The notes: generated by a model not told the origin, from the letters alone. 55,547 nucleotides of DNA from a virus (IMGVR_UViG_3300037961_002849:1-55547), one strand, 5' to 3'. Positions 467 to 54,842 are shown, counted from the stretch's first letter. Numbers and translations are program-made.

Positions 467-732
467 TAGTTCTTATACCCTCCCCCCGCGGCTTTATATC
501 GTTTGGCTAGCATTTGAGCTTTTCTGGCAGACCACTGACCAGCGCGCCCACCTTTAGTGCCACGCATGATCGCCTGGAATAACCGCTTCCTCAACCCGGG
601 TTTTGTATAGTTACCAGATTCATTGACACGCGATTTTACCTTACCCCCCTTTTTATAGGAAGCAGGTAACTTACCAGCCTTCTTCTTCTTAGCAATTGCT
701 ATTGCTGCTTGTTGTGCTCTACTCTTCGCCAT
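466..732 (-). CDS. Small basic protein, DUF5872-like N-terminal half (start revised to MAKSRAQQ)
   Basis: NYTKPGLRKRLF...GTKGGRAGQWSARKAQMLAKRYKAAGGGYK motif. TATCTTTG box lies 5 nt upstream of the ATG at 732. Confidence 0.65.
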   Translation of the reverse strand: MAKSRAQQAAIAIAKKKKAGKLPASYKKGGKVKSRVNESGNYTKPGLRKRLFQAIMRGTKGGRAGQWSARKAQMLAKRYKAAGGGYKN

Positions 733-6514: not shown

Positions 6515-6823
6515 ATGAAGTATTATATAGTTTATAATCCCGACACCGAGCAGTTTGACCTGCGCGACAAAGAACTATGCAAGACGATATTCTCGTCTTC
6601 ATCACGAGGAAGATGCGAAGCTCGCCTCGAAGAGATTGTAAGAGAAAGTTACAAGCCCGACATGGAGAAGATGTACTACTTGATGGATAGGATGGGTGAG
6701 ACTTTACAATGTATCAAAGAGTGGGAAGGACAGCGCAAAGGTGTGCAAGATTTCGATCTCACAAGAGCACTACATTTGCACGCTCAAATGCAAATCGCTC
6801 TTGGTTTACCGCTCAAATATTAA
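6515..6823 (+). CDS. Hypothetical protein
   Basis: ORF in operon. Confidence 0.65.
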   Translation: MKYYIVYNPDTEQFDLRDKELCKTIFSSSSRGRCEARLEEIVRESYKPDMEKMYYLMDRMGETLQCIKEWEGQRKGVQDFDLTRALHLHAQMQIALGLPLKY

Positions 6824-6841
6824 TAACTTAGCACTAATTAA
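6821..6841 (+). promoter_or_regulatory. Promoter-like motif TAATAACTTAGCACTAATTAA before the recombination/replication module
   Basis: 19/21 identical to 34263-34283. Confidence 0.55.
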
Positions 6842-6851
6842 ATTCAATCTT

Positions 6852-7412
6852 ATGAGTAAATTAAACTCCGCACTCGTAGCAGTGCAGTCAGCGTTGAAGG
6901 CGCCTAAGGGTCAGTTCAACAAGTTCGGTAACTACAACTACCGTAGCGCCGAAGATATCCTAGAGGCAGTCAAGCCTCTACTCGCAAAGAATGGTTTGTC
7001 TATGACCATATCTGATGAAGTGAAAGAGCTTGCCGGAATACTATTCATTGAGGCCGTGGTTCAAGTAACTGATGGCGATTCCATAGCAGCAGTTTCAGCG
7101 CAAGCAGGTATCGACCCTAACCGAAAGGGGATGGACATAGCTCAGTGCTTTGGAGCTTCAAGTTCATACGCTAGAAAGTATGCCCTCAACGGCATGTTCT
7201 TGATAGATGATACTAAAGATGCAGACGCAACCAACACGCACGGCAAGAGAACGTCTTCACCTGCGGCAAAGGATGGCGAGTGGTTTACTAAAGCGGTAGA
7301 CTACATCAAGAAAAGCAAGGACAAAAACCAAGCGTTTGAAATGGTCCTTAGCAAGTACAAAGACAGCGCCAGCGAAAAGCAGATTGAAGCACTCAAAAAG
7401 TTTGTGCGATAA
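6852..7412 (+). CDS. erf: ERF-family ssDNA annealing protein (start revised to MSKLNS)
   Basis: LKAPKGQFNKFGNYNYRSAEDILEAVKPLL and GASSSYARKYALNGMFLIDD motifs. Confidence 0.9.
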   Translation: MSKLNSALVAVQSALKAPKGQFNKFGNYNYRSAEDILEAVKPLLAKNGLSMTISDEVKELAGILFIEAVVQVTDGDSIAAVSAQAGIDPNRKGMDIAQCFGASSSYARKYALNGMFLIDDTKDADATNTHGKRTSSPAAKDGEWFTKAVDYIKKSKDKNQAFEMVLSKYKDSASEKQIEALKKFVR

Positions 7413-8179
7413 TGGAGTTCGCCACCTTACTACAAGAAAAGGTAGGCAAAGGATACTTGTCTTACAGCAGTATAAAGCATGCTCTTAGCGACATAAGGCT
7501 ATGGGAAATGTATATGGCTGGGCAACTGAAGAGAGAGTCGCAGGCTCTAAGCTTTGGGAGCGTGTACGACACACTATTATTTGAACCCGCCGAATATACT
7601 AACCGCTTCTTTACCTTTGACGACAAAGAGATTTGTGATGAAATCGGAGGCAAGAACCCACGGGCCACAAAGAAATACAAAGAGTGGCGCGACGATCTGA
7701 TAAGCCAAGCAGAGAAAGAAGATAAGCGGATAGTTTCTGAAGATGATTACATCATGGCAATCGACATGATATCTAGGCTCGATGATTGTGGTCTGCTTGA
7801 CAGCCACCTCAGCGGGGAAGTGCAGCTAGAGTTTAACAGCTGGATTGAAGATGTTCCGGTCCGTGGGTTTTTGGACTGCAAGATTCCCAACGTAATCATT
7901 GATAGCAAGAGCACCCGTAGTATCGGAGGCTTTAAGCGTGATGTGTTTTCTTTTGGATACGACATACAAGCATACATCTACACTTCGGTATTTCCGGACA
8001 ATGAGTTTGCTTGGGTTGCACAAGAGAAAGCATACCCGTATCTTCCTGCACTAATTCATGCCAGCGAGGATACACTTCGTAGTGGAGAGTTTAAGTTTTG
8101 GAAAGCGGTTGATACTATCAAGAACCACTTTGCAATTGACCGACCCGCCACTACCTTTTATAAAGAATTCTATGTTTAA
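7412..8179 (+). CDS. PD-(D/E)XK exonuclease (RecE/ExoVIII-like, DUF3799)
   Basis: LSYSSIK, RGFLDC, IIDSKST and YDIQAYIY motifs. Adjacent to ERF. Confidence 0.85.
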   Translation: MEFATLLQEKVGKGYLSYSSIKHALSDIRLWEMYMAGQLKRESQALSFGSVYDTLLFEPAEYTNRFFTFDDKEICDEIGGKNPRATKKYKEWRDDLISQAEKEDKRIVSEDDYIMAIDMISRLDDCGLLDSHLSGEVQLEFNSWIEDVPVRGFLDCKIPNVIIDSKSTRSIGGFKRDVFSFGYDIQAYIYTSVFPDNEFAWVAQEKAYPYLPALIHASEDTLRSGEFKFWKAVDTIKNHFAIDRPATTFYKEFYV

Positions 8180-11366: not shown

Positions 11367-11576
11367 GTGGATTCGAAAGAACTTTCCAGATTATATTACA
11401 ACGCTTGTGAAAATGCTCATAGAGAAATCGATGAGCTGTACGAAGCCTGCCATTCGGCTCAAGGGAAACCAAATGTAGATACAGAAAAAATAATACAACT
11501 TCTACAGAGAGTAAATCAAAAGGTAAGGATAGAACTTGATTTAATAAAAACGGCTGTCATAGAATATCACGAATGA
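11367..11576 (+). CDS. Hypothetical protein
   Basis: GTG-start ORF coupled to the next gene. Confidence 0.55.
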   Translation: MDSKELSRLYYNACENAHREIDELYEACHSAQGKPNVDTEKIIQLLQRVNQKVRIELDLIKTAVIEYHE

Positions 11577-11926
11577 CAGACCACGCCACGCACCGCTGCA
11601 GTAAATGCAAGGAAGTTAAACCTAAACATCAATTCCATAAAAGCAACACCCACTCTGCGGGAGTTCAGCGGTATTGCAAGGGGTGTAAGAAAAAGATAGA
11701 CAGCAAAGGGCACGGGAAGTACAAGGGTAAATATGCCGTGTACTACCTACCAAAACACAACTACATTGGAATGTCAAAGAACTTGACAAAGAGAATGCAG
11801 AAGCATAGAAAGCGTGGCAAAAATACCACGGGATTCAGAGTGTTAATCGCAACAAAAAATGCAAAACTTGCACATACAATAGAAAGTCTTTTTCATATTC
11901 TAGGTTTTAAAGGTTTTAGATATTAA
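11573..11926 (+). CDS. Zn-finger (CxxC...CxxC) plus GIY-YIG-like nuclease
   Basis: CSKC and CKGC, then AVYYL...YIGMSKNLTKRMQKH. Confidence 0.7.
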   Translation: MTDHATHRCSKCKEVKPKHQFHKSNTHSAGVQRYCKGCKKKIDSKGHGKYKGKYAVYYLPKHNYIGMSKNLTKRMQKHRKRGKNTTGFRVLIATKNAKLAHTIESLFHILGFKGFRY

Positions 11927-12390
11927 TCATAATCAATGTAAGTAATACTTACTTCTCCCCCTTCTTCAAGCTCCTTAGCAATCGCCGGATAGATTCTCTT
12001 ATACGCACTAACGCTAGAGCCAATGAATCCATCACTACTACCAAAGTTTGTTTTCTGAGTATCACCAACAAGAAGACACCCAGCAGTGTGCTCATCAGTA
12101 TTACCAGTGTGAATAAGAATGTACTCAAAGTTAGGTACATCACGAACCCATAGCATTCCCTTGTGCATCTCGCCATACTTAGCTGTATATCTGCTATGAA
12201 ATCCTCCAGTAGTACGAAGCGTAACCTTGTAAGTTCCTGCCGGGACTCTAGTCTCTGACATAACCTTTACACTTCTGTGCTCATCCTCTAACGTATAGCA
12301 TAAGAACTTACGCTCCCCACCGCTAACATCAAACAACAATCCGTTTGTGCTGTCTGATTCACTACTAAATCTTAAAACTTCTAGCTCCAT
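11923..12390 (-). CDS. DUF5675 protein (L,D-transpeptidase-like, putative endolysin)
   Basis: CYTLED, VPAGTY and ILIHTGNT...TAGCLLVG motifs. Next to a holin-like gene. Confidence 0.8.
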   Translation of the reverse strand: MELEVLRFSSESDSTNGLLFDVSGGERKFLCYTLEDEHRSVKVMSETRVPAGTYKVTLRTTGGFHSRYTAKYGEMHKGMLWVRDVPNFEYILIHTGNTDEHTAGCLLVGDTQKTNFGSSDGFIGSSVSAYKRIYPAIAKELEEGGEVSITYIDYD

Positions 12391-12843: not shown

Positions 12844-15800
12844 TTAGTTATCTTCTAAATCCAAAAAATAATTTCTAACAATACCGTCTCTGTATGCTCT
12901 CCAAGGATAGACACCGCCAGTATAAGTTCCGCGAGAGTGTCTGTTGTATATGGACTTGAGCGCAGATATTTTCTGAGAGTTGTTCATCTTTTGATAAGCA
13001 GGGCTAGTAACAAGTCTTTTTACATCTTTATACCGAGCTTGACCAAATGATTTCATCATAGCATGAGCGTCCTTAGGCATTATAGATATGTAGTTAGGCT
13101 CATTAACATTAAGCCCATAGTAAGCAGACTCCTGCTTGGTAAGTAATATTTTTAGTTTACCTACCGCTGAAGGGTATCCCGGAATTACATCAGTATCTCC
13201 CGTCTCTTTAAACAAGTTGTATATGTCGATCTTAACCGGGTCTTTTGAGCTTATTCTAGATTTGAATACTCCAAAAGTATTGTACAACCAAGGGTACTCT
13301 TTGTCGCTATCAAAGAAAAGAGAGCCTCCGCCTTCTGGAGTTTGAGTTATAGACTCACCCCAAATGTTTACTCTAGGCACAACGGACTCTCCTAGACCAA
13401 AGAAGTTGAAGGTCTTATCTCGGAGTATGTTTTCCATTGAGTTGTCAATACCCGGGTTCGGATCTCTATAGTCGGGCAAGTACTCGCGTCCAGAGCGGTA
13501 GAATGCACTGAGTGAGTTAGGCAATACAACTGAGAATCCTGCACGCATGATGTTGTCTAAGTACTTGGTTAGCTGTCTCTCATTCGGGTCAGCCAACAAC
13601 TTAATAACCCCATCAATACCAGTCAAGAACGACTGGTCCATCATAGACCCTAAGACCCCGGGGACAACGCCCGTGATATCAGAAATGAAGTCCATAAAGT
13701 TATCAGAGCGGTTCAGTACCTTGGCGTCCATCTGAGCGTCACGCATCACAGCCTTAATACCTACAGCTTGAGCAGCTATAACAGCACCGCCCAGACCAAG
13801 CTTCTGATAGTTAAACCAAACATCATCTGCTTGAAGCGTTGGGTCTTCACCATTAATCAGCCTCTTGACACCGCTAATATTTATAGAGTTCGGAGGAGCA
13901 GTACTATACTTCATGTCTCTTTCCTTCTTTCCGTCCGCATCTATAGGGGTGGTGATCAACCCATCCTCCATCAACTTTTGAGTTGTTTTGTAAAGCAACC
14001 AGCTGATAAATGATTTGGCAAGAAGCTCAGAAAGCTCTCGGTCAGAAACCTTTTTCCCGCCTCTAATAGTTTTCTTTAGAACTAACGATAGCAATGGCAT
14101 AACCGGATGAGCAAGCTGTATACTCTGAGACAAGATATTCGCTGGTGTTTTTATATAAGGGATGTGCATACGCACCATAACACGGAAAGCGTTTTCCAAA
14201 AACGTACTTCTCTCGCCAAGAATATCAGATGCTTTAGCTATAGACTTATTTATAGCTGTGGCAAATTGGTTATCCTCTTGGAAGGTAACTCTTAGTCCTG
14301 CCTTTTCAGCTCTAGCCTTATACTCTTCATTAGGATATTTTAAGAATCTGTTTAGCTCTTCACCCTTCAGACCCAAAGACTTTCCTATACGATGAAGCTC
14401 ATAGCCCTCCATTAATCTATAGAAAGGCATATCACCAAACGCAAGCAGTCTAAACATGATATTAGCGGGACCACCGCCAACAGCCTCTAGGAATTTCTTA
14501 GCACGGAAATTAATCTCGTTTAACTTTGTGCCGTTCTTAACTGAATCCGGGAGCCTATCGCTGTTAGCTAGAATCATACCGAATGCTTTGATAGGAGCCA
14601 GCTGAAGCTGCATGTTGTATTCAAACTTATCATTAGCAATCGCCCTACCAATAGCACTTAGATAAGCTTCTCGAGCGCCAACTCCAAATTGCTTAGCCGC
14701 GTGTATTGCTGCTGGTATAGAAGGTGGCAGTGTAGCAAGAGAAGGGTCGACTTCTCTGCCCATAGATTTCTTAATGCCTCTGATAAGAACCTCAGCACCA
14801 TAGCCCAATGTCTTGTCAGCCAACATTATAGGAAGTGTAGCAAGGTTAGCGGTAATGTTTACCAGCTGAGAAACCGGGGTAAGAAGATTCCCTTGGATTA
14901 TCAACCCAATGAGCCTGCCCCAAGTCGTAGCAAAGTTTGTATTGAAGTCGTTAAGTTTACTGGTAGCTTCAGAAACTCTGTTTCTAGCATCTTCCAGTCT
15001 GTCTTCAATAGCTGGTATCTTGTTAGTCTCTGAGGTTTCTGACAGCTCCTTAATCAAAGACTGAACGTCTTGTTGCGCGTCGAACAACTCATCAACAATA
15101 CCCCCCATGGTTTCATACTCAGAATCAGATAGAGTTGTGCCGTTAGCCTCGTAGATATTGTCTACTAGATCTTTCATGCCTGCCGGGGTTTGCCCTTTAA
15201 CCTCAGCAAACTGGCGGAGCAACTGCCCCACAGCAGTACCCGTCTCAAAGAAACGCTTCAAGACAGCTCTGTATTCTTTTGTCTTCCCTTGATTCTGTAA
15301 TCTTTTTAAATATTCAAGTGTCGCTAGCACACGGAAGTCTCCACCAGCTAAAGAGCTCATCGCGTCGTTGATTACAGAAGGATTATCGCCATCAGAAATA
15401 GCGATATCTTTCATCTCAGCAAGCAACTCCTCAATAGACATTGTCTCTAGCTCAGATTTAATCTGATCGATCTTCTGAGGCTCATAGAACCTAGACATAT
15501 CTTCAGCTAAATCCTTTCTGATTGACGCCTCAAATGGGACGTTAGGGTCTAAGCTCTTGAACATCTTGCGAGCATGACGTCTTTCTTTTGTCTCTAGCCT
15601 AGCTCGATCACCGCTATCTACATACCATTCTGGGTAGAAGATACCGCCGGCTCTCTCAAATACTTGATCTTGAGCTTCATCGAAAGAAATGTTTCCGTCA
15701 GCATACTCTTGCCATATAGCACGAACGTCAGACTTGTTTTTCTTCTGAGCCTTAAATCCAGGCGTGAATAAAGTCCTAACGGCTTCCCAAGTAATAGACT

Positions 15801-18800
15801 GCATCTCTCTTGCGAGCAAGCCTTTTTGTTCTGCAGCATTACGATAAGCCTCAGCGTAAGCAAAGTATACACCTTTGATTCCAAGGTTAGAGCTACCAGC
15901 TTTAACATCGATAGCCGCAGTACCACCACCAAAGTTATGGAAGACCTCAGCGTCTGAGCCCGATAGAGGGAGAAGTTCTGCAGCAGCTACAGCATGAGTG
16001 TCTATGGTTACGTCTCCCGTGTCTGAGTTCGGGTCGTTGATGTTGTTAAAGAATGATCTCACTTTGTGCTGATCGCCTACTTTAGAATCAATGTTTTCCA
16101 TCGTGCCATCGATAGCGATAGAGGTAGCAGAGGAAATCTCAGCATAAGAACCCCAGGCCATTGTCTTCATCTCTCCATTAGCCTTCTTGCCATATCCAAT
16201 GCGCTCGCCAATAGGGCTGACGATGTGATAGTTGCGATCCTCAAACATCTCGTTATATGTACGCACGAACATCGCAGACTCCAAAGCAGCGTTATCGCCT
16301 TCAATTATTTCTCTTAGAGACTTGCCCACCATGCCTTGAAGCACAGCCTTTCTTTTTAAGTATGATTTGTAAGCCTCTTTAGTGGCCTTTCTTTTAAAGT
16401 CTTGCTGGTTTAGAATTTTATTCTTGACCTTCCGCATATTTCTCAGAGCGGTATTATACATAGACTTGCTAAACTCAGTGTCTTTCTGACTGCTCATCAC
16501 GCGCATCACTGACTCGCCAAGGGCGATGTTCTGATACCAATCCTTCTGAGGAGAAAGCGCAGCCAAGATACCCGCAGCCTGCTCTTGAGTATAGCCATAG
16601 CGAACAGCTAGGTCTTGAGCGGTAAGGTTTGCACCTACGTACCAAAGCTTTGAGTACTTCCTTACATCTTCGCTAAACGAATCATGAAGTTTGATTAAGT
16701 TTCTAGTAGCTCGGTCAACAAAAGTTTTGTAGATTTCATCTGCTCTGGTAATCTCTGCATCAGTGGGCTCGCGTTTGATGTCTAATTTTTTAGCATCCTT
16801 AATGTCCGACATGAAAGTGTGTGTAGACAAAATATAAGCACCACGAACATATACCTTAGGAGCAAACTCTTTGGTATACTCCATTGTAATTTGTCGAGAG
16901 CCGTCAAAGTTAGTGGTATTGTCAGCTGACGCAGAAGTGTTTCTAGCTGGTGATACTCTGCTTCCAGCCCCAACCTTATCTACAGCTTGTGCTACAATCT
17001 TATCATCTAGACGCGCGCGATTGCCGTTCTGCATGTAGTCAAGCTTATCTTTAAGAGACTGCAATATCTCTGCCTCTTGCTTAGCTCTTTGCTCAAATAT
17101 CCCTTGGAACCTAGTCTGAATGCTTTCGGGTTCAAACAGCGGAGTCTCAAATCTAGAAATCATATCCTTGAGTCCAGGCTCGTCTATGTTTTTAGTAAGC
17201 TCTTCTGCTATGACTCCAGCAGAAAAAGGTATAGATGAATTATCTCTATATGCGGCAAACAAACTGGTTCCGTCAACATAAGGAATCTGTATGCCATATC
17301 CGGACTGCGTCACTAAATCTCTAGCCGGATCTACTTCGATAGAGATAGGATTCACATCGGGGAGCCTTAGGTCTTCACGAAGATTATATCCATCTTTAGG
17401 CTTATGCAAAACATCATGCTGTGTTATTATCGCCTCGTCTTTTATTGTGGCATATTGAGGGATAAACTTGTTCTTTGTTCCCTCACTGACTTCGTTCTTA
17501 AAGAAAAGATTTCTAGCAATGGTACTTTCATTACCCATTAACATGTGGTTACTTTGATGACCGTCTATATCAAACACCTCGAACATCGGGAATCCGTTAA
17601 TGGTAGTTTGAGTTTTTGAGAAACCCACATTAAAGTCATGAAGATCTGGAGCAGCAATCCCAAGCTTTGCCATTGAACCAGTCATCTGCCAAATGTTCAT
17701 CGCATACCCTACGAGATCATCAATGGTCATTCTACCATCGCGCTCTGCTCTACCAATAGGATTATCAGCAGATCTTGTGAATCCATCTTTTTCAAGGATA
17801 TCGTTGAGTGCTCTAGAGGCCTCTTCGTCTTGCATCACTGCTAACAAATGCAAACCAACATTTTCGGTTTTTGCTATATCTATAGCGGTTTCGTAGATGT
17901 CTCCTGGACTTGGACCAATAGTCTCTACTAGACTAAATGACTTGTAGTAAACATCATGAATAGCTCTAACAATAAGTCTATAAATATCTTGAGCAGTGAC
18001 ATCTACGCCTCTATCAAACTTATCTGTTTTAATATCTACGTAATCCTTTGTAACAAACACGTGAGAGCCAGTGCCCATAAACGTATCAGCAGCATCTAAG
18101 AACATCGCGCCCATCCCATGATACTTAGCAAGCCCAGGGAGCTTTCCATTATACTTGTTTAAGTATATGGCCGATATCTGAGACTCTCTTAAACTCCTTG
18201 TTTGTTTAACTACTGTTTTACCGTCAAGTGTTTCAACCTCATAGGCGACTCCATAAGCACCATCACCGAGCCTTCTAACCTTAGAGATAGCCATGCCTTG
18301 AGACAGCATATACTCTTCAAGCCTAGCTCTATTAGCGGTAGTTGGTGTGCTCTTTTGTTCTGCCGATTGAGCGCTTTCAACACGGTACTCATTTATAATT
18401 TCTTGTATTTTTTCACTAACCCGCCCTCGATAATCTATAAAGTCGTCGCCGTTTACAGCAAGTCTAAAAGCCTTGGATGAGGTTGACTCATCAACAAAGA
18501 AAAGCCTATTGTGCATTACCCGCATGAACCTATTGTCTTGCTCAGAGTGCATAAGATTAACAACACCCAGGGTGTCTAGTATTTTTCTTATGGCATCTGA
18601 ACCCGGCTCACCAACAGACTCAGCATCCGATATAGATACACCTTCGGCGTCAAGGATAGACTTTATCATTGTTGGTGTGATAATATCCAACCCTGCCTGC
18701 TCGTAAAAATATTTTGCTGAAAACTTGTTCTCGCTAGGACCATCTGAATAAAAGACATCTGTTGATGATTCTTCGCGAATGTTTCTTGATGCAGTATTAA

Positions 18801-21800
18801 TGTTATCTCGATAAATTTTAATAACACGAGCTTGATGCTCGGTAGGCTCTAAATCATCGAATCGCTTCATCTCATTCACAAGTTGGCCGTCTATATCAAA
18901 CAACTTGTACTGAGAATACTTCTGAAACTTATCAGTGCTTTGAGGCTGAGCAAATCCAATGTTGCCGTAGTGAACATCTGGCGCAATGAAACCAATCTTC
19001 TCTAAACTCTCACTCATTTGGTAAGCATTATCTAAATAAGCTAATGCAAGATCAAACATCTCGAGTTTTGTAAATGGTATTGTAGAATCATATACCTCAG
19101 AATAATCATCTGGGAAATTCATTTCTGTGAATGCTCGCGCACCGCTTTCTATTATGTCTGCTAGATAAGTATACATAGATTCACTTACAGCGCCAGGAAT
19201 GGTACTGTCTGATCCAATATATTCTCTTAAAAAATTGTTTATTATTTCCCCAATTTCAAGAGGCGTGACAGTGCTCCCTTCTTCAGCAGTCATGATTGTC
19301 GGCACAAACTCTTTAATCTGATAAATCAAAGGCTCTGTCTTGCCGGTAGCAGAAACAGCAACATCATAATACTCTGCAAGGCCGGGTAGGTTTCCGTTAA
19401 ACTCACGCACATACACAGCGGAAGCTATTGTTTCTGTAACAGATTGAGCTTCTTTAACTACCACGTTGTTACCGCTAGCGTCTTTAACCAAGAATGCATA
19501 TCCAAAAGCTCCAGACCCTAGGACCTTCATCTCTGATAGGTCTAGGTTTCTATCTAAGGCAAAGTCTACCAGTCGAGCTCTGTCTCCATCATTAGCATCG
19601 CGCTCTTGACGCATTGCCTTACCCGGATTATTGTTCGGGTTTTCTTTGATTCGTTTAGCGATATCAAGGATATATATCTTCTGACCGCTACGATATCCCT
19701 GCGTTACTCTTTCTACTAAGTTTACGAGCTCATTCTCGCTCTTGAGTTTGAAACTAGAGAGCTTGCCAGATAATATTTTATTTATAGCACGTCTAGACTT
19801 ACCCTTAAATGTTGCATCAAGCTGATTTAAGTTGTCGTTTATGTCTGCTATAATACCAACGATCACCTCTTCCTCCGCAACAGCTATGGCGTGTTCTTCG
19901 GAATGCCCTCTCTCTATATAAAATGTAACGTAGTCATTGAATCGCTCATCCATTTTTTGACGAAGAGATTCATTATTGATGCTTTGTAAATCGTTGTATA
20001 AAGAAGTGCGAACCCTTGGCTCTAGAACCATGATATTACGCAGACCTGCGTGAGCAAATTCCTCGCGGATCGCCGCAGTAGTTGCGTTGAACATAACGTG
20101 AATAGCTGGTCCACCTTCTCTTTCGTGCTCATAGAACGCTTCATAAGGGCCTCCAGTAGCACGCTGTAAAGACTGTTTTGTTCTATGAATGATAACACGG
20201 GGGGCTTCAGTGTACTTATCTGTAAACGCATTGTATGCGCTGTTAAGCATCTTCGCTATACGAGGGGTAACTCCGTGACGTTTTGGATTTACCGCACCAC
20301 CACGAATCTCTATAGAATTATCTATCTCCTCAGAAGCTTCTCTTGCTTGCTCTAGAGATGACGCTGCCTCCTCCGCGGCGCTTGGCGCTACTCGCTGGGC
20401 TGGCCTAGGAGCTGGCTCAACACTTGGTTGCGCTTCTGTTGCGGCAGGTTCATCAACCTCTGGTATAGATCGTTCTGCTGTTTGCTCTGCTGCGAACTCT
20501 CGTTCGGCTTGCTCAATGGCTTGTCTTGCTGTTTCATTGCTCTCAATTATTTGGTTAACTTTTGCTCTATCTGATGGGTTTTCTCTAGCTGATAATAATA
20601 TTTGATATGCAGCATCCATAGCATCTTGCCCGTATAGCTCAACTACTGCACCGCTTTCGTCTTTCATTTGCACACGAACACCGCGCTCTGCCTCTGCAGA
20701 AATAGCGGTTGGTGTTTCTAATGGTACAAACTGACCCCCACCAAATATAGATATCGCGTTTACCCCAACCTCTGGGTCAATGCTAAGTCTTGTGCCTTCT
20801 GCTATGTTCGGGTTATCTGGTTTTTGGTACAAGAAAGTACCGTCTTCTTGAACCGCTAATGTCTGACGTTCAGCAATCGCAGGCTCAAACATTCTAATAG
20901 TAGATGGGTCCACCTCGCTGCGCTGCCCAAGTTCTACTTTTTCTGTTTCAGTCTCAACCACCAATGTAGGATTCTCTGGAGTACCCTCAAGGCGGAGAGT
21001 ACCTTGTACCTCTGTCCCGTCTATAGGTCTTTCTGCGATAACCTCAGTGCCATCTTCAAGTGTATTGATAGTTATAGGGTCTACTGTAGAAGCGCCTTCT
21101 GCTACGGAGCGAGCTTCAGTAGGAACGACTGGTGTAGCCAACTGGTCCATGTCAATTGGGTCAATAGCTGGGGCAACTTCCTCAACTTCAAAGACACCAA
21201 AATTATCCATTAGGGTTACAATCTCAGCACCTAATCTTGATTTAAGTTTTGTATCTGTGGCCTCCCGCATTTCTTGTTGGAGGGAAAATATTTTTTGACT
21301 CTTGTCAATTAAATCTAATTGTTGATCTTGAGTCAGTTCTTCGAAAGCTCTAATGTTTGCATTGAGCATTTCGTATTTTTTATTTCTAAACTCTTTTAGG
21401 TCGTCTTTTAGGGTTTGCTTAGCTTCTTTGCCCCTTACTTTTTTAAGCTGGTCTTTAGTCTCTTGTATCTTTTGCTCTACTACTTGTACTTGACCATCAC
21501 CCATAAGTGAAGCAGCGGTTGTTATACTACTTCCGTTGGCTTTGTTTTTTTGCGCCCACTGAACATAGGTTCTCTCTGAAGTAGGTGTCATAAGTTCGTT
21601 ATAGCGTGAGCTTACAGCTCGAGTAGCTGCCGCAGGAGCTGCCATCACTGGCCCCCCGAGCGCTTCCATAACAATATCAAGACCCGATGTAACTTCCCCT
21701 TCTTCAGCAATCTGACCGGCAGTTTCACCTAATGCACCACCAGTAGCGTCAACTAATATTTCTGCTCCTGCAGCCTTCATTACGCTACCGCCAGCTTTTC

Positions 21801-22818
21801 TTACAGCTTGTGCGGTTGTCCCCCCAGCTCCGGCCAATAATGCGTCAACAGAAGCAATAATAGCTGCGCGCACTTTCCTGCGCTCCATTGCATCATGAAT
21901 TTTTTTTAAGCCCTCTTCTGACTCAAATGTCTTTGCGATTTCTTCGGGGTCGGTTGTGTCGATGTGTAGTTCTTCCATTGCCATACTTATGGCCTCAGAC
22001 ATCTCAAGGGCATAAGACCCTGCAAATGCTGTCCCCGTGGCCAAACCAACACCAGTACCTATAAGATAACCCGCGGGTACAGTAATCTCAGCAAGTGGAC
22101 CACCAGCAAGACCACTAGCAACTCCAACAGCCTGGCCTTCGGCAACACTAGCGGATACTGTTTTAAGCGCCCCCTCACTAGCAAAGCCCGAGACTACAGA
22201 AGAGAAAAAATTACCAAGCAATTCTGGGAGAACAACATTTGTAATTCCGGACACACTGCCAAAAGAAGCCCAAGTCAATGGGTCTTTTTCGTTTCTGTAT
22301 TTTTCTTGAAGCTCGTTGTAATAAGCTAATCGCTCAGCAGCATCTATATTATTCTCTGGATCGCCATCTAATAAATCCTCTTTAGCACCAGTAGCCAATC
22401 CAGTGGCTACAAAGTTATTATACCATCTAGCAGCGCTGCCAAACCAGTCGTCTCTTTCTACAAACCAGTCGTCAGCAATAAGTGCATGACGATATTCTCT
22501 ATCGTTTATTTCTTGGGGCTTATTATTGGGGGCTGAGCTTTGTACAAACCTTTCTTCTAAAAGGTCATCCGAGAAATTTGTAAAGTCAGACTTTTGCTCG
22601 TATGATAAGTCCAAACCAGTATCTTCCAATCCAAAATCCGTAGTAGGAGTGACTTGGGGCGGTAGTTGAGTTTGAACTTTTTTTTTACTAAAAGATTCTA
22701 GGGCACGAGTTACTTCATCATAAGAAAACCCATTATCAATACCCATTGCGAACAAGCGGTCCTCGCTGTATCCACTATCAAAGCCGCTCTGCAATAACTG
22801 CAGTAATTCCTCGTTCAT
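12844..22818 (-). CDS. Giant virion/ejection polyvalent protein (hydrophobic segment, zincin-like domain, 2 protein kinases, glycosylase-like domain, LPD-like C-terminus)
   Basis: 3324 aa at the end of the structural operon. Motifs are detailed in the findings. Confidence 0.8.
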   Translation of the reverse strand: MNEELLQLLQSGFDSGYSEDRLFAMGIDNGFSYDEVTRALESFSKKKVQTQLPPQVTPTTDFGLEDTGLDLSYEQKSDFTNFSDDLLEERFVQSSAPNNKPQEINDREYRHALIADDWFVERDDWFGSAARWYNNFVATGLATGAKEDLLDGDPENNIDAAERLAYYNELQEKYRNEKDPLTWASFGSVSGITNVVLPELLGNFFSSVVSGFASEGALKTVSASVAEGQAVGVASGLAGGPLAEITVPAGYLIGTGVGLATGTAFAGSYALEMSEAISMAMEELHIDTTDPEEIAKTFESEEGLKKIHDAMERRKVRAAIIASVDALLAGAGGTTAQAVRKAGGSVMKAAGAEILVDATGGALGETAGQIAEEGEVTSGLDIVMEALGGPVMAAPAAATRAVSSRYNELMTPTSERTYVQWAQKNKANGSSITTAASLMGDGQVQVVEQKIQETKDQLKKVRGKEAKQTLKDDLKEFRNKKYEMLNANIRAFEELTQDQQLDLIDKSQKIFSLQQEMREATDTKLKSRLGAEIVTLMDNFGVFEVEEVAPAIDPIDMDQLATPVVPTEARSVAEGASTVDPITINTLEDGTEVIAERPIDGTEVQGTLRLEGTPENPTLVVETETEKVELGQRSEVDPSTIRMFEPAIAERQTLAVQEDGTFLYQKPDNPNIAEGTRLSIDPEVGVNAISIFGGGQFVPLETPTAISAEAERGVRVQMKDESGAVVELYGQDAMDAAYQILLSARENPSDRAKVNQIIESNETARQAIEQAEREFAAEQTAERSIPEVDEPAATEAQPSVEPAPRPAQRVAPSAAEEAASSLEQAREASEEIDNSIEIRGGAVNPKRHGVTPRIAKMLNSAYNAFTDKYTEAPRVIIHRTKQSLQRATGGPYEAFYEHEREGGPAIHVMFNATTAAIREEFAHAGLRNIMVLEPRVRTSLYNDLQSINNESLRQKMDERFNDYVTFYIERGHSEEHAIAVAEEEVIVGIIADINDNLNQLDATFKGKSRRAINKILSGKLSSFKLKSENELVNLVERVTQGYRSGQKIYILDIAKRIKENPNNNPGKAMRQERDANDGDRARLVDFALDRNLDLSEMKVLGSGAFGYAFLVKDASGNNVVVKEAQSVTETIASAVYVREFNGNLPGLAEYYDVAVSATGKTEPLIYQIKEFVPTIMTAEEGSTVTPLEIGEIINNFLREYIGSDSTIPGAVSESMYTYLADIIESGARAFTEMNFPDDYSEVYDSTIPFTKLEMFDLALAYLDNAYQMSESLEKIGFIAPDVHYGNIGFAQPQSTDKFQKYSQYKLFDIDGQLVNEMKRFDDLEPTEHQARVIKIYRDNINTASRNIREESSTDVFYSDGPSENKFSAKYFYEQAGLDIITPTMIKSILDAEGVSISDAESVGEPGSDAIRKILDTLGVVNLMHSEQDNRFMRVMHNRLFFVDESTSSKAFRLAVNGDDFIDYRGRVSEKIQEIINEYRVESAQSAEQKSTPTTANRARLEEYMLSQGMAISKVRRLGDGAYGVAYEVETLDGKTVVKQTRSLRESQISAIYLNKYNGKLPGLAKYHGMGAMFLDAADTFMGTGSHVFVTKDYVDIKTDKFDRGVDVTAQDIYRLIVRAIHDVYYKSFSLVETIGPSPGDIYETAIDIAKTENVGLHLLAVMQDEEASRALNDILEKDGFTRSADNPIGRAERDGRMTIDDLVGYAMNIWQMTGSMAKLGIAAPDLHDFNVGFSKTQTTINGFPMFEVFDIDGHQSNHMLMGNESTIARNLFFKNEVSEGTKNKFIPQYATIKDEAIITQHDVLHKPKDGYNLREDLRLPDVNPISIEVDPARDLVTQSGYGIQIPYVDGTSLFAAYRDNSSIPFSAGVIAEELTKNIDEPGLKDMISRFETPLFEPESIQTRFQGIFEQRAKQEAEILQSLKDKLDYMQNGNRARLDDKIVAQAVDKVGAGSRVSPARNTSASADNTTNFDGSRQITMEYTKEFAPKVYVRGAYILSTHTFMSDIKDAKKLDIKREPTDAEITRADEIYKTFVDRATRNLIKLHDSFSEDVRKYSKLWYVGANLTAQDLAVRYGYTQEQAAGILAALSPQKDWYQNIALGESVMRVMSSQKDTEFSKSMYNTALRNMRKVKNKILNQQDFKRKATKEAYKSYLKRKAVLQGMVGKSLREIIEGDNAALESAMFVRTYNEMFEDRNYHIVSPIGERIGYGKKANGEMKTMAWGSYAEISSATSIAIDGTMENIDSKVGDQHKVRSFFNNINDPNSDTGDVTIDTHAVAAAELLPLSGSDAEVFHNFGGGTAAIDVKAGSSNLGIKGVYFAYAEAYRNAAEQKGLLAREMQSITWEAVRTLFTPGFKAQKKNKSDVRAIWQEYADGNISFDEAQDQVFERAGGIFYPEWYVDSGDRARLETKERRHARKMFKSLDPNVPFEASIRKDLAEDMSRFYEPQKIDQIKSELETMSIEELLAEMKDIAISDGDNPSVINDAMSSLAGGDFRVLATLEYLKRLQNQGKTKEYRAVLKRFFETGTAVGQLLRQFAEVKGQTPAGMKDLVDNIYEANGTTLSDSEYETMGGIVDELFDAQQDVQSLIKELSETSETNKIPAIEDRLEDARNRVSEATSKLNDFNTNFATTWGRLIGLIIQGNLLTPVSQLVNITANLATLPIMLADKTLGYGAEVLIRGIKKSMGREVDPSLATLPPSIPAAIHAAKQFGVGAREAYLSAIGRAIANDKFEYNMQLQLAPIKAFGMILANSDRLPDSVKNGTKLNEINFRAKKFLEAVGGGPANIMFRLLAFGDMPFYRLMEGYELHRIGKSLGLKGEELNRFLKYPNEEYKARAEKAGLRVTFQEDNQFATAINKSIAKASDILGERSTFLENAFRVMVRMHIPYIKTPANILSQSIQLAHPVMPLLSLVLKKTIRGGKKVSDRELSELLAKSFISWLLYKTTQKLMEDGLITTPIDADGKKERDMKYSTAPPNSINISGVKRLINGEDPTLQADDVWFNYQKLGLGGAVIAAQAVGIKAVMRDAQMDAKVLNRSDNFMDFISDITGVVPGVLGSMMDQSFLTGIDGVIKLLADPNERQLTKYLDNIMRAGFSVVLPNSLSAFYRSGREYLPDYRDPNPGIDNSMENILRDKTFNFFGLGESVVPRVNIWGESITQTPEGGGSLFFDSDKEYPWLYNTFGVFKSRISSKDPVKIDIYNLFKETGDTDVIPGYPSAVGKLKILLTKQESAYYGLNVNEPNYISIMPKDAHAMMKSFGQARYKDVKRLVTSPAYQKMNNSQKISALKSIYNRHSRGTYTGGVYPWRAYRDGIVRNYFLDLEDN

Positions 22819-53987: not shown

Positions 53988-54292
53988 CTTGAAAACTTCT
54001 CTGCGAACCCACCGGAAAAATCCGACTGTTCTGTTATACCTCCCGTTTGTTTCAGCTCCTTGACCATCTGCTCGAGTCGCTGCCTTTCCTGCAGCAGCTC
54101 TCTGGCGTCGGTAGCTGTAATCTTTATCGCTTGTAGCTCAGCCTTGCGCTGTGACCCGCCGGCCTCTGGATCGACGGGCTTTTTTATTTCGTCGATCATA
54201 TTATTGATAGCCACTTCCATGGAGGCCATCAGCCTTTCAGCTGCATCAAGCGTTGTGAACTTCTTCGATTTCGACATAAAGCAAATCATCAA
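53984..54292 (-). CDS. Conserved helical protein, possible terminase small subunit (likely start MSKSKK)
   Basis: Coiled coil, upstream of terL, GGFAE C-terminus. Confidence 0.4.
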   Translation of the reverse strand: MMICFMSKSKKFTTLDAAERLMASMEVAINNMIDEIKKPVDPEAGGSQRKAELQAIKITATDARELLQERQRLEQMVKELKQTGGITEQSDFSGGFAEKFSR

Positions 54293-54842
54293 ATCTCATT
54301 CTCCAGTATTTCTCTCCGTCGATTTCTATTTCGTAGTCGGAATTCTTTGAAAACCCTACGATATCGCCTACCCTAATTCCAGCCTCTTCCAGAACCTTAT
54401 TTGTAAACGCAACCTTGCCGCGCTTATTTTCTTTCTCTTCAAAGCTTATGATTTGGATGGTGTTGCTCTTGAGCTCTTCTTCCTCTTCCATGGGGTGGAG
54501 CAGTACCCATCCCGATAGTGCTCGGATGCCGTTTTCATCTTTCACGGCGAATGCCTGGGATGAATATGGAGTGTCGGGGTGGTATCTTACTATGAATAGT
54601 TTTTCATCTTCATATACTAACCCTTGGCCTTTATCCATTACCACGTGGTGGTGGAAGTATAGTGTATCACCTTTGTTTGCGATATTTTCATCGCGCATGG
54701 GCACGGAGACGATCTCGCCTTCCATCACCCGGTGTTCAAACTCATTGTATTTTGAAGCTAGATAAAGCTCCTCCCCGTTCACCTCTATGGTGTCTTTAAA
54801 TCTCTTGGATAGACGCACCAAGAAATTCTCTACCATTTTCAT
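54246..54842 (-). CDS. Co-chaperonin GroES-like protein with two tandem domains
   Basis: RALSGWVLLHP...GKV...VGDIVGF...EIEIDGEKYWRMRFDDLL, plus an N-terminal GEIVSVP..KGDTLYF copy. Confidence 0.75.
   Translation of the reverse strand: MKMVENFLVRLSKRFKDTIEVNGEELYLASKYNEFEHRVMEGEIVSVPMRDENIANKGDTLYFHHHVVMDKGQGLVYEDEKLFIVRYHPDTPYSSQAFAVKDENGIRALSGWVLLHPMEEEEELKSNTIQIISFEEKENKRGKVAFTNKVLEEAGIRVGDIVGFSKNSDYEIEIDGEKYWRMRFDDLLYVEIEEVHNA

Follow-up and report, generated by a model that had tools for sequence, protein, structure and literature searches.

The viral record IMGVR_UViG_3300037961_002849 (the window, a 55.5-kb stretch of 55,547 nucleotides that is estimated to be 93% complete) encodes a giant protein of 3324 amino acids (aa) in which the short motif [DN]RARL occurs four times, close to the starts of successive protein modules (Table 1). 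Sequence comparisons indicate that this motif is the local form of a junction element that occurs clade-wide in giant phage proteins. We tentatively propose that the motifs are cleavage sites for a zincin-like domain located within the same protein. It is quite possible, if short of probable, that a double-stranded DNA (dsDNA) phage here packages a true self-processing polyprotein, in which an atypical EExxH zincin would close the N-terminal chassis and a delimiter would precede every cargo module.

The giant protein contains four copies of RARL, at aa 1080, 1497, 1934 and 2405, and each is preceded by Asp or Asn ([DN]RARL at aa 1079, 1496, 1933 and 2404). With one further residue the sites read GDRARL (nucleotides 19570-19587), ANRARL (18319-18336), GNRARL (17008-17025) and GDRARL (15595-15612), and consecutive sites are 417, 437 and 471 aa apart. 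The original prediction, made from the DNA sequence alone, had placed four (D/N)RARL sites at these same coordinates, about 410-470 aa apart, and had argued that selection acts on the protein. This argument holds, because the codons differ both among the four copies–GACAGAGCTCGACTG, AATAGAGCTAGGCTT, AATCGCGCGCGTCTA and GATCGAGCTAGGCTA–and between relatives. DNA-level explanations such as a recombination joint or an internal start signal are ruled out by the same codon differences, and so is DNA-level homogenisation of the window protein's sites.

From the composition of the protein, the expected number of [DN]RARL copies is 0.008. One copy was present in 154 of 20000 shuffles, and two or more copies in none of them. 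In a look-elsewhere test that allowed any 4-mer or gapped 5-mer, 6 of 100 shuffles equalled the score of the four bare RARL copies, so the significance of the motif rests on its D/N flank, its conservation and its position, and not on the 4-mer count alone. RARL occurs seven times in all six frames of the window; the three copies outside the giant open reading frame (ORF) sit in stop-to-stop frames of 53-83 aa, and the six-frame translation of the window has no [DN]RARL outside this ORF. A fifth and weaker copy, DRAKV at aa 750-754, could be a degenerate site; its conservation says little, since the surrounding stretch is conserved anyway.

Sites 3 and 4 mark real module boundaries, on three independent lines of evidence. 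The first is where homology ends. We compared the window protein with 30 distant giant proteins that have only its DUF7178 module in common with it, and with a second set of 59 shorter relatives. The BLAST match to the DUF7178 module ends at residues q2398-2399 of the query, in the conserved sequence ..AGGIxxPxW, in 23 of the 30 distant proteins (the other seven end at 2371-2425), and nine of the 59 shorter proteins themselves end 1-3 aa past the end of the match (one of these nine is marked complete by its source). At the 28 module ends that we inspected, in the window protein and 27 of the 30 distant ones, non-conserved sequence follows, mostly a G/R/D/S-rich linker. Motif 4 lies 6 aa beyond this homology-defined end. 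The second line is where homology begins: just past motif 3, at q1937-1941, in P0061 (q1937), P0062 and P0008 (q1941), and just past motif 4, at q2411, where the match to the C-terminal domain (C-domain) starts in P0009 and P0039-41. The third is an AlphaFold model of the DUF7178/C-domain region, built with 35 sequences, in which the DUF7178 core (aa 1977-2399) folds with a predicted local distance difference test score (pLDDT) that is mostly 80-97 over the block. Motifs 3 and 4 lie outside this confident core, in linkers with pLDDT <50 (aa 1928-1974 and 2401-2451).

The boundary evidence is weaker for sites 1 and 2 than for 3 and 4. Sites 1 and 2 close poorly conserved linkers, in which 7/20 and 4/20 upstream columns are invariant, compared with 5/5 and 4/5 columns in the motifs, and both lie about 12 residues ahead of the first match to a protein-kinase profile. 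A phmmer search with the first kinase-like module (K1) against 1.84 billion representatives returned only its own family, and no standalone kinases by which the motif could be placed relative to the fold.

Homologues also exchange modules at the sites, a check that the original prediction had suggested. P0009 has 547 different residues between the end of DUF7178 and the C-domain, and the minimal forms P0039-41 (1430 aa) have no cargo; the C-domain is present in all three of them, and the N-terminal domain (q1-474) was seen in P0039. The proteins P0039-P0044 (1430-1564 aa) are laid out as an N-terminal domain, one copy of DRARL, DRAKL or DRKKL, a coiled acidic linker and the C-domain. This layout suggests that they represent the chassis into which cargo cassettes went.

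All the sites are kept in relatives with 54-63% identity to the window protein (P0003-7, loci L003-L009), where site 2 reads NRARI. The sites show synonymous codon differences in loci L003-L009, with variable Arg and Leu codons. In an alignment of the window protein (P0001) with P0003-7, 19 of the 20 motif columns are invariant, compared with 31/80 in the 20 residues upstream of each site, 45/80 in the 20 residues downstream, and 59% over the whole protein. The K1 module of the approximately 60%-identical loci L003 and L007 is about 175 aa longer than that of the window (592-597 vs 417 aa), by an insertion within the module and not at a motif.

A search of viral contigs with the C-domain alignment found 78 loci, of which we analysed the 18 with the longest matches. 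They include giant ORFs of 3.1-3.3 thousand residues that have about 30% identity to the window protein, in the C-domain only, and that lack RARL. Copies of a related motif, [RMK]AS.[RKMLQ][LIMV], number five in L025, three each in L016, L028, L018 and L021, and two in L027, where about 0.2 are expected; there is one each in L033 and L024, and none in L017 or L019. Seven of these proteins (35-46% identical, with one pair at 74%) can be aligned, and the copies fall at four junctions that are homologous among them. The copy nearest the N-terminus comes after the EExxH domain, and the one nearest the C-terminus stands directly ahead of the C-domain, as motif 4 does. The flavour of the motif is characteristic of each protein: L018 has RAS at each of its four junctions, L021 has EMAS, L025 has GRAS, and L016 and L028 have KAS/KAS/KAS/RAS. 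The sites of one chain drift together while orthologous sites differ, as a shared recogniser would predict, and the pattern points to a recognition site. A Pfam Phage_L5_gp82 domain is flanked by the penultimate and last copies in all three proteins that we scanned. The family with this +AS motif ([RKM]AS..[LIM]) consists of the giant plus-strand ORFs of L016, L018, L021, L025, L027, L028 and L033; the C-domain match starts at about nucleotide 10001 in the first six of these loci and at nucleotide 6081 in L033.

We also made an unbiased scan for repeated 4-mers or gapped 5-mers in the 30 distant polyvalent proteins, with 100 shuffles of each. Three of the 30 beat all their shuffles: P0029 (NYSI, four copies), P0008 (EAAP, a low-complexity repeat) and P0022 (GVGQ). 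Two of the NYSI copies in P0029 lie 6 and 20 residues ahead of ART-PolyVal and LPD3 matches. P0009 has four copies of GR[DE]QK, one of them at the start of the C-domain, and 1 of 100 shuffles matched its GR.QK. Repeated linker motifs also occur near domain starts in P0032 (PKFS[KR], four copies), P0015 ([AK]FSR, four copies) and P0012 (RFSA, three copies); a pattern [KRA]FS[KRA] that would unite these three was chosen after seeing the data and is suggestive only.

Directly upstream of site 1 is the domain that the original prediction called zincin-like. Its E-E-x-x-H motif is invariant in all nine aligned giant proteins, and a second pair of acidic residues follows about 60 aa later (EE in eight proteins, DE in the ninth). 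A hidden Markov model (HMM) of these nine proteins also picks up L024, a locus outside the training set, with an E-value of 1.8e-16. In the alignment of L024 to the HMM, its HEVLH corresponds to EExxH, its strand His to H906, and its NE to the second EE. Descent of the window domain from zincin-like enzymes is supported, on this alignment, by way of its HExxH-bearing relative. P0009 and L031 have HExxH in a similar local context; the nine-protein profile did not reach either of them. A low-confidence structural model (pLDDT ~45-64) has a helix, three strands, the EEFAH helix and a later EEE helix, a predicted order that resembles the MPTase core in PMC5512222, where the motif-bearing helix likewise comes after a helix and three strands and is followed by a helix with the Glu. 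The same article reports that the active site varies among MPTases and that one clade has an additional His in a strand. We found no shorter homologues of aa 841-1078, and a Foldseek search with the model of aa 840-2010 (mean pLDDT 37.9) gave nothing significant. For aa 840-1064 together with the motif-4 segment, complex prediction gave no answer (a score of 0.00), which counts neither for nor against binding.

Under the mechanism that we propose, the giant protein would be a beads-on-a-string ejection/polyvalent protein, consisting of the N-terminal domain, the zincin-like EExxH domain and then four units that each open with [DN]RAR[LI]: two kinase-like modules, the DUF7178 module and the conserved C-domain. 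A single cognate factor would recognise the motif, and the likeliest candidate is the zincin-like domain of the protein itself. This domain would make its first cut at site 1, on its own C-terminal edge, before turning to sites 2-4, with predicted pieces of about 118, 47, 49, 53 and 103 kDa. The original prediction likewise took the motifs for protease sites, whose cleavage would free injected effectors. A first cleavage site that abuts the protease domain is seen in self-releasing viral proteases, and many zincins prefer a hydrophobic residue at P1', which a cut before Leu would suit. We read the motifs as cleavage sites because exposed, conserved, repeated sites stand at every cargo boundary, as in a self-processing polyprotein; because their flavours co-vary within each protein and site 1 abuts a zincin-derived domain; and because autoprocessing of polyvalent proteins is a published prediction (PMC5512222). 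That a bond is cut, by which enzyme, at which position, and when (in the capsid or after ejection), are the parts that we infer. If the protein is self-processing, enzyme and sites would co-evolve to give each lineage its own 'punctuation', such as [DN]RAR[LI], RAS..L, EMAS and GRAS, and perhaps GR[DE]QK, NYSI and KFSK in other polyvalent proteins.

Several observations weigh against self-cleavage. The giant protein gp50 of phage N4, the analogue that has been studied best, is packaged and works uncleaved, both gp50 and the plasmid proteins ArdC and TraC1 carry MPTase domains yet are delivered whole (PMC5512222, PMC13434306), and the accessible text on the virion proteins of phiRIO-1 reports that no processing was seen (PMC4819975). 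No cleavage fragment of the window protein has been observed. The domain's ancestry is supported, but its description as an active canonical zincin is not: P0001 has no HExxH, the first His being replaced by Glu in EEFAH, the domain has no Pfam peptidase match at E-values up to 10, and its language-model neighbours are LPD23 clusters and not peptidases. PF18818 (MPTase) matches nothing in the window genome, and the PF18818, S78, S77 and ClpP models match nothing in the window and four related phage records (four of the five are at least 93% complete). The association between domain and motif is also imperfect. L024, with its canonical HExxH, has no significant repeated motif, L017 and L019 have EExxH without the +AS motif, and the minimal forms P0039, P0042 and P0044 have one DRARL, DRAKL or DRKKL each without any [EH]ExxH. 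Finally, a poor model (mean pLDDT of 37.9) has sites 1 and 2 at the start of the helix that enters the N-lobe of the kinase.

An alternative is that the motif is never cut. Much like cargo-loading peptides, the start of each module could be a docking peptide that binds a common partner (the capsid interior, scaffold or core proteins, or the ejection channel) and so organises or threads the intact chain. The positions and co-variation of the motifs fit docking as well, the nearest analogues that have been studied remain whole, no known protease family turned up in our searches, and the sequence after the motif resembles the start of an amphipathic helix. However, no partner has been identified, docking does not need the first site always to adjoin the zincin-like domain, and the small central Ala, the basic and hydrophobic flanks and the exposed linkers seem typical of protease sites. 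We regard docking as rather unlikely, while giving it serious weight.

It is less probable that the sites are cleaved, but by an unrecognised phage protease or, after ejection, by a host protease. All the evidence from boundaries, conservation and flavours applies equally to another protease, the EExxH domain is without a canonical zinc ligand, the minimal forms have a DRARL-type motif and no [EH]ExxH domain, and much of the window has no assigned function. On the other hand, the S78, S77, ClpP and MPTase models drew a blank in all five phage records, the window ORFs that we scanned include no Pfam peptidase, and a housekeeping host protease would leave the joint change of flavour at the sites of one protein unexplained. 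A general prohead-protease site is ruled out, because the motif is absent from the remaining ORFs of the window and no family of prohead proteases was detected. That the motif has no function, being a leftover of module duplication plus chance or a favourable helix cap, is disfavoured and in our view very improbable: two of the four copies could have been inherited with the paralogous kinase-like modules, and some 4-mer does as well as bare RARL in 6/100 shuffles, but modules 3 and 4, which are unrelated to kinases, are preceded by this motif and its D/N flank as well, conservation is higher within the motif than in the sequence around it, and related motifs stand at homologous junctions of ~30%-identical proteins at 10-25 times the expected number.

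The cargo itself corresponds in part to what the original prediction described. Its two kinases are weakly but consistently kinase-like. K1 and K2 are 23% identical to each other, and seven K1/K2 sequences have in common the invariant residues G-x-G-A-x-G, V-x-K, E, D-x-H-x-x-N and F-D-x-x-G. Profile searches of PDB gave weak matches, to the Gly loop and beta-3 only (EGFR, 0.0045; NEK1, 0.018; PKR, 0.036), and among the 60 PDB matches listed, all are protein kinases except six designed TIM-barrel proteins. Language-model neighbours of these modules are Pkinase, RIO1, OspG and Kdo clusters, at 0.93-0.94. The catalytic motifs, profile matches and neighbours thus speak for the kinase label, against the result from Pfam, which has no kinase match for K1 or K2. 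The 'glycosylase-like' label of the third module finds no support: Pfam identifies it as DUF7178, and its confident model has no fold match in PDB (best E-value 0.17).

The DUF7178 domain is mostly helical and occurs widely, both in polyvalent proteins of phages and in standalone proteins (500-700 aa). T-x-D-T-H-A and Q-S-x-x-W-E are among the residues that do not vary in 35 sequences of the domain. The module also occurs in proteins with ART-PolyVal, LPD3, LPD22 and LPD38 domains. In a Foldseek comparison with BFVD, the DUF7178/C-domain model matched only other uncharacterised phage polyvalent proteins; the entry 'Protein inside capsid D' was matched only at an E-value of 0.017 and a probability of 0.15. 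The C-domain profile has no matches in PDB, T7 core proteins included, at E-values up to 1.

We interpret the giant ORF as a polyvalent virion protein similar to ejection proteins, and its position among structural genes is what suggests that it is packaged. The large terminase of the window shares 42-47% identity with its counterparts in podophages of Flavobacterium and Cellulophaga. A structural block on the minus strand contains the terminase, portal, tail fibre, an SU10-type major capsid protein and several PHROG 'virion structural protein' matches; it is followed by ORFs of 287 and 460 aa and then by the 3324-aa ORF at 12844-22818 (-). We regard the protein as ejection-protein-like because its gene stands where T7-like gene orders have their internal virion (ejection) proteins (PMC4819975). 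It is polyvalent in that one polypeptide joins several unrelated effector-type domains, namely the two kinase-like modules, DUF7178 and the zincin-like domain. A DNA search with this region against 50,697 phage records found no matches, and a tblastn search with aa 1001-3324 matched three records, all on the DUF7178 part.

Table 1. Features of the giant gene and its product (coordinates in the window).
Feature	Coordinates	Strand	Remarks
Giant ORF	12844..22818	-	3324 aa, 368.7 kDa; single ORF by translation; downstream of capsid and tail genes
N-terminal domain	21397..22818	-	aa 1-474; Gly/Ala-rich; common to the 1430-aa 'minimal' relatives (seen for P0039)
DRAKV, weaker fifth copy	20557..20571	-	aa 750-754; family-conserved
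Zincin-like domain	19609..20298	-	aa 841-1070; directly upstream of site 1; conserved in 9/9 aligned giant proteins
EEFAH	20053..20067	-	aa 918-922; aligns with HEVLH of L024; conserved EE ~60 aa on (aa 981-983)
Motif 1, DRARL	19570..19584	-	aa 1079-1083; closes an Asn/Pro-rich variable linker
Module K1, kinase-like	18334..19569	-	aa 1084-1495
Motif 2, NRARL	18319..18333	-	aa 1496-1500; NRARI in relatives
Module K2, kinase-like	17023..18318	-	aa 1501-1932; paralogue of K1
Motif 3, NRARL	17008..17022	-	aa 1933-1937; in a stretch with pLDDT <50
DUF7178 module	15610..17007	-	aa 1938-2403; folded core aa 1977-2399, ends ..AGGIFYPEW
Motif 4, DRARL	15595..15609	-	aa 2404-2408; 6 aa past the DUF7178 module end, in a stretch with pLDDT <50
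C-terminal domain	12847..15594	-	aa 2409-3324; ~30% identity with many phage giant proteins and the minimal forms

Polyvalent proteins, zincin-like domains and truncated kinases are all known already. Iyer, Burroughs, Anand, de Souza and Aravind predicted in 2017 that zincin-like MPTase domains autoprocess polyvalent proteins, and they described kinases lacking the C-lobe in polyvalent proteins of Bacteroidetes phages (PMC5512222). The window protein resembles theirs in being a very large phage chain of unrelated enzyme domains, with a zincin-like domain and a module in common with ART-PolyVal/LPD carriers. It differs in its explicit, repeated and lineage-specific motif: the accessible text of PMC5512222 names no cleavage-site motif, and the word 'linker' occurs there 0 times. 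Unlike those MPTases, the window domain has EExxH and fails Pfam PF18818. Our literature search, which did not cover the supplementary alignments of PMC5512222, found no lineage-specific boundary motif tied to a zincin-like domain.

Among podovirus proteins, T7 gp16, the N4 gp50 virion RNA polymerase and H66 gp60 are likewise encoded after tail-tube-like structural genes (PMC4819975, PMC13434306). Like the window protein, podovirus internal virion protein D has a hydrophobic N-terminal part, cytoplasm-bound cargo and a large helical C-terminal domain (PMC4819975), and the cargo-free minimal relatives (~1430 aa) are near T7 gp16 in size. No solved structure, those of T7 core proteins included, matches the giant protein by sequence or profile, which sets it apart from T7 gp16-type internal virion protein D, and the accessible text of PMC4819975 and PMC13434306 reports no repeated junction motif for protein D. 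A further comparison, by description, is with gp47 of the Stx phage phi24B, a 2811-aa polyvalent protein with LPD and metallopeptidase domains that was detected in virions by proteomics, is invisible in cryo-electron microscopy and is a proposed ejection protein (bioRxiv 10.64898/2026.04.10.717836). Its peptidase is proposed to attack peptidoglycan, and processing or a motif is not mentioned in the accessible text of that preprint. Phage head proteins can be cut at consensus sites by prohead proteases, of which SPN3US gp245 is an example (PMC10052503). The window protein is a dsDNA phage virion protein for which cleavage is our reading and in whose genome no prohead-protease family was detected, unlike those head proteins and the polyproteins of other viruses. 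In viral polyproteins, an embedded protease cuts at a consensus that recurs along the chain; the likeness to them lies in the short repeated consensus in linkers that separate functional units, in a first site that abuts the candidate protease, and in the co-evolution that would be expected of site and enzyme.

Uncultured phages commonly encode giant polyvalent virion proteins, whose presumed role is to bring first-strike enzymes into the host, which raises the question of how one chain of 300-400 kDa becomes several working enzymes. The 2017 autoprocessing proposal had no defined site, and a motif beside a zincin-like domain offers concrete bonds and residues. If the protein is self-processing, that proposal would be directly testable, and the sequences of thousands of giant phage proteins from metagenomes could show where their effectors begin and end. 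Even if the motif is a docking signal, it would provide a simple sequence rule for parsing giant proteins into units.

Elsewhere in the window, a DUF5675 protein is encoded just downstream of the giant gene, at 11923-12390 (-), and a small ORF at 11573-11926 (+) has weak T5orf172/GIY-YIG matches. An ERF recombinase lies beside a PDDEXK-like protein at 6696-8179 (+), and a 198-aa ORF with a Cpn10 co-chaperonin domain is located at 54246-54842 (-).

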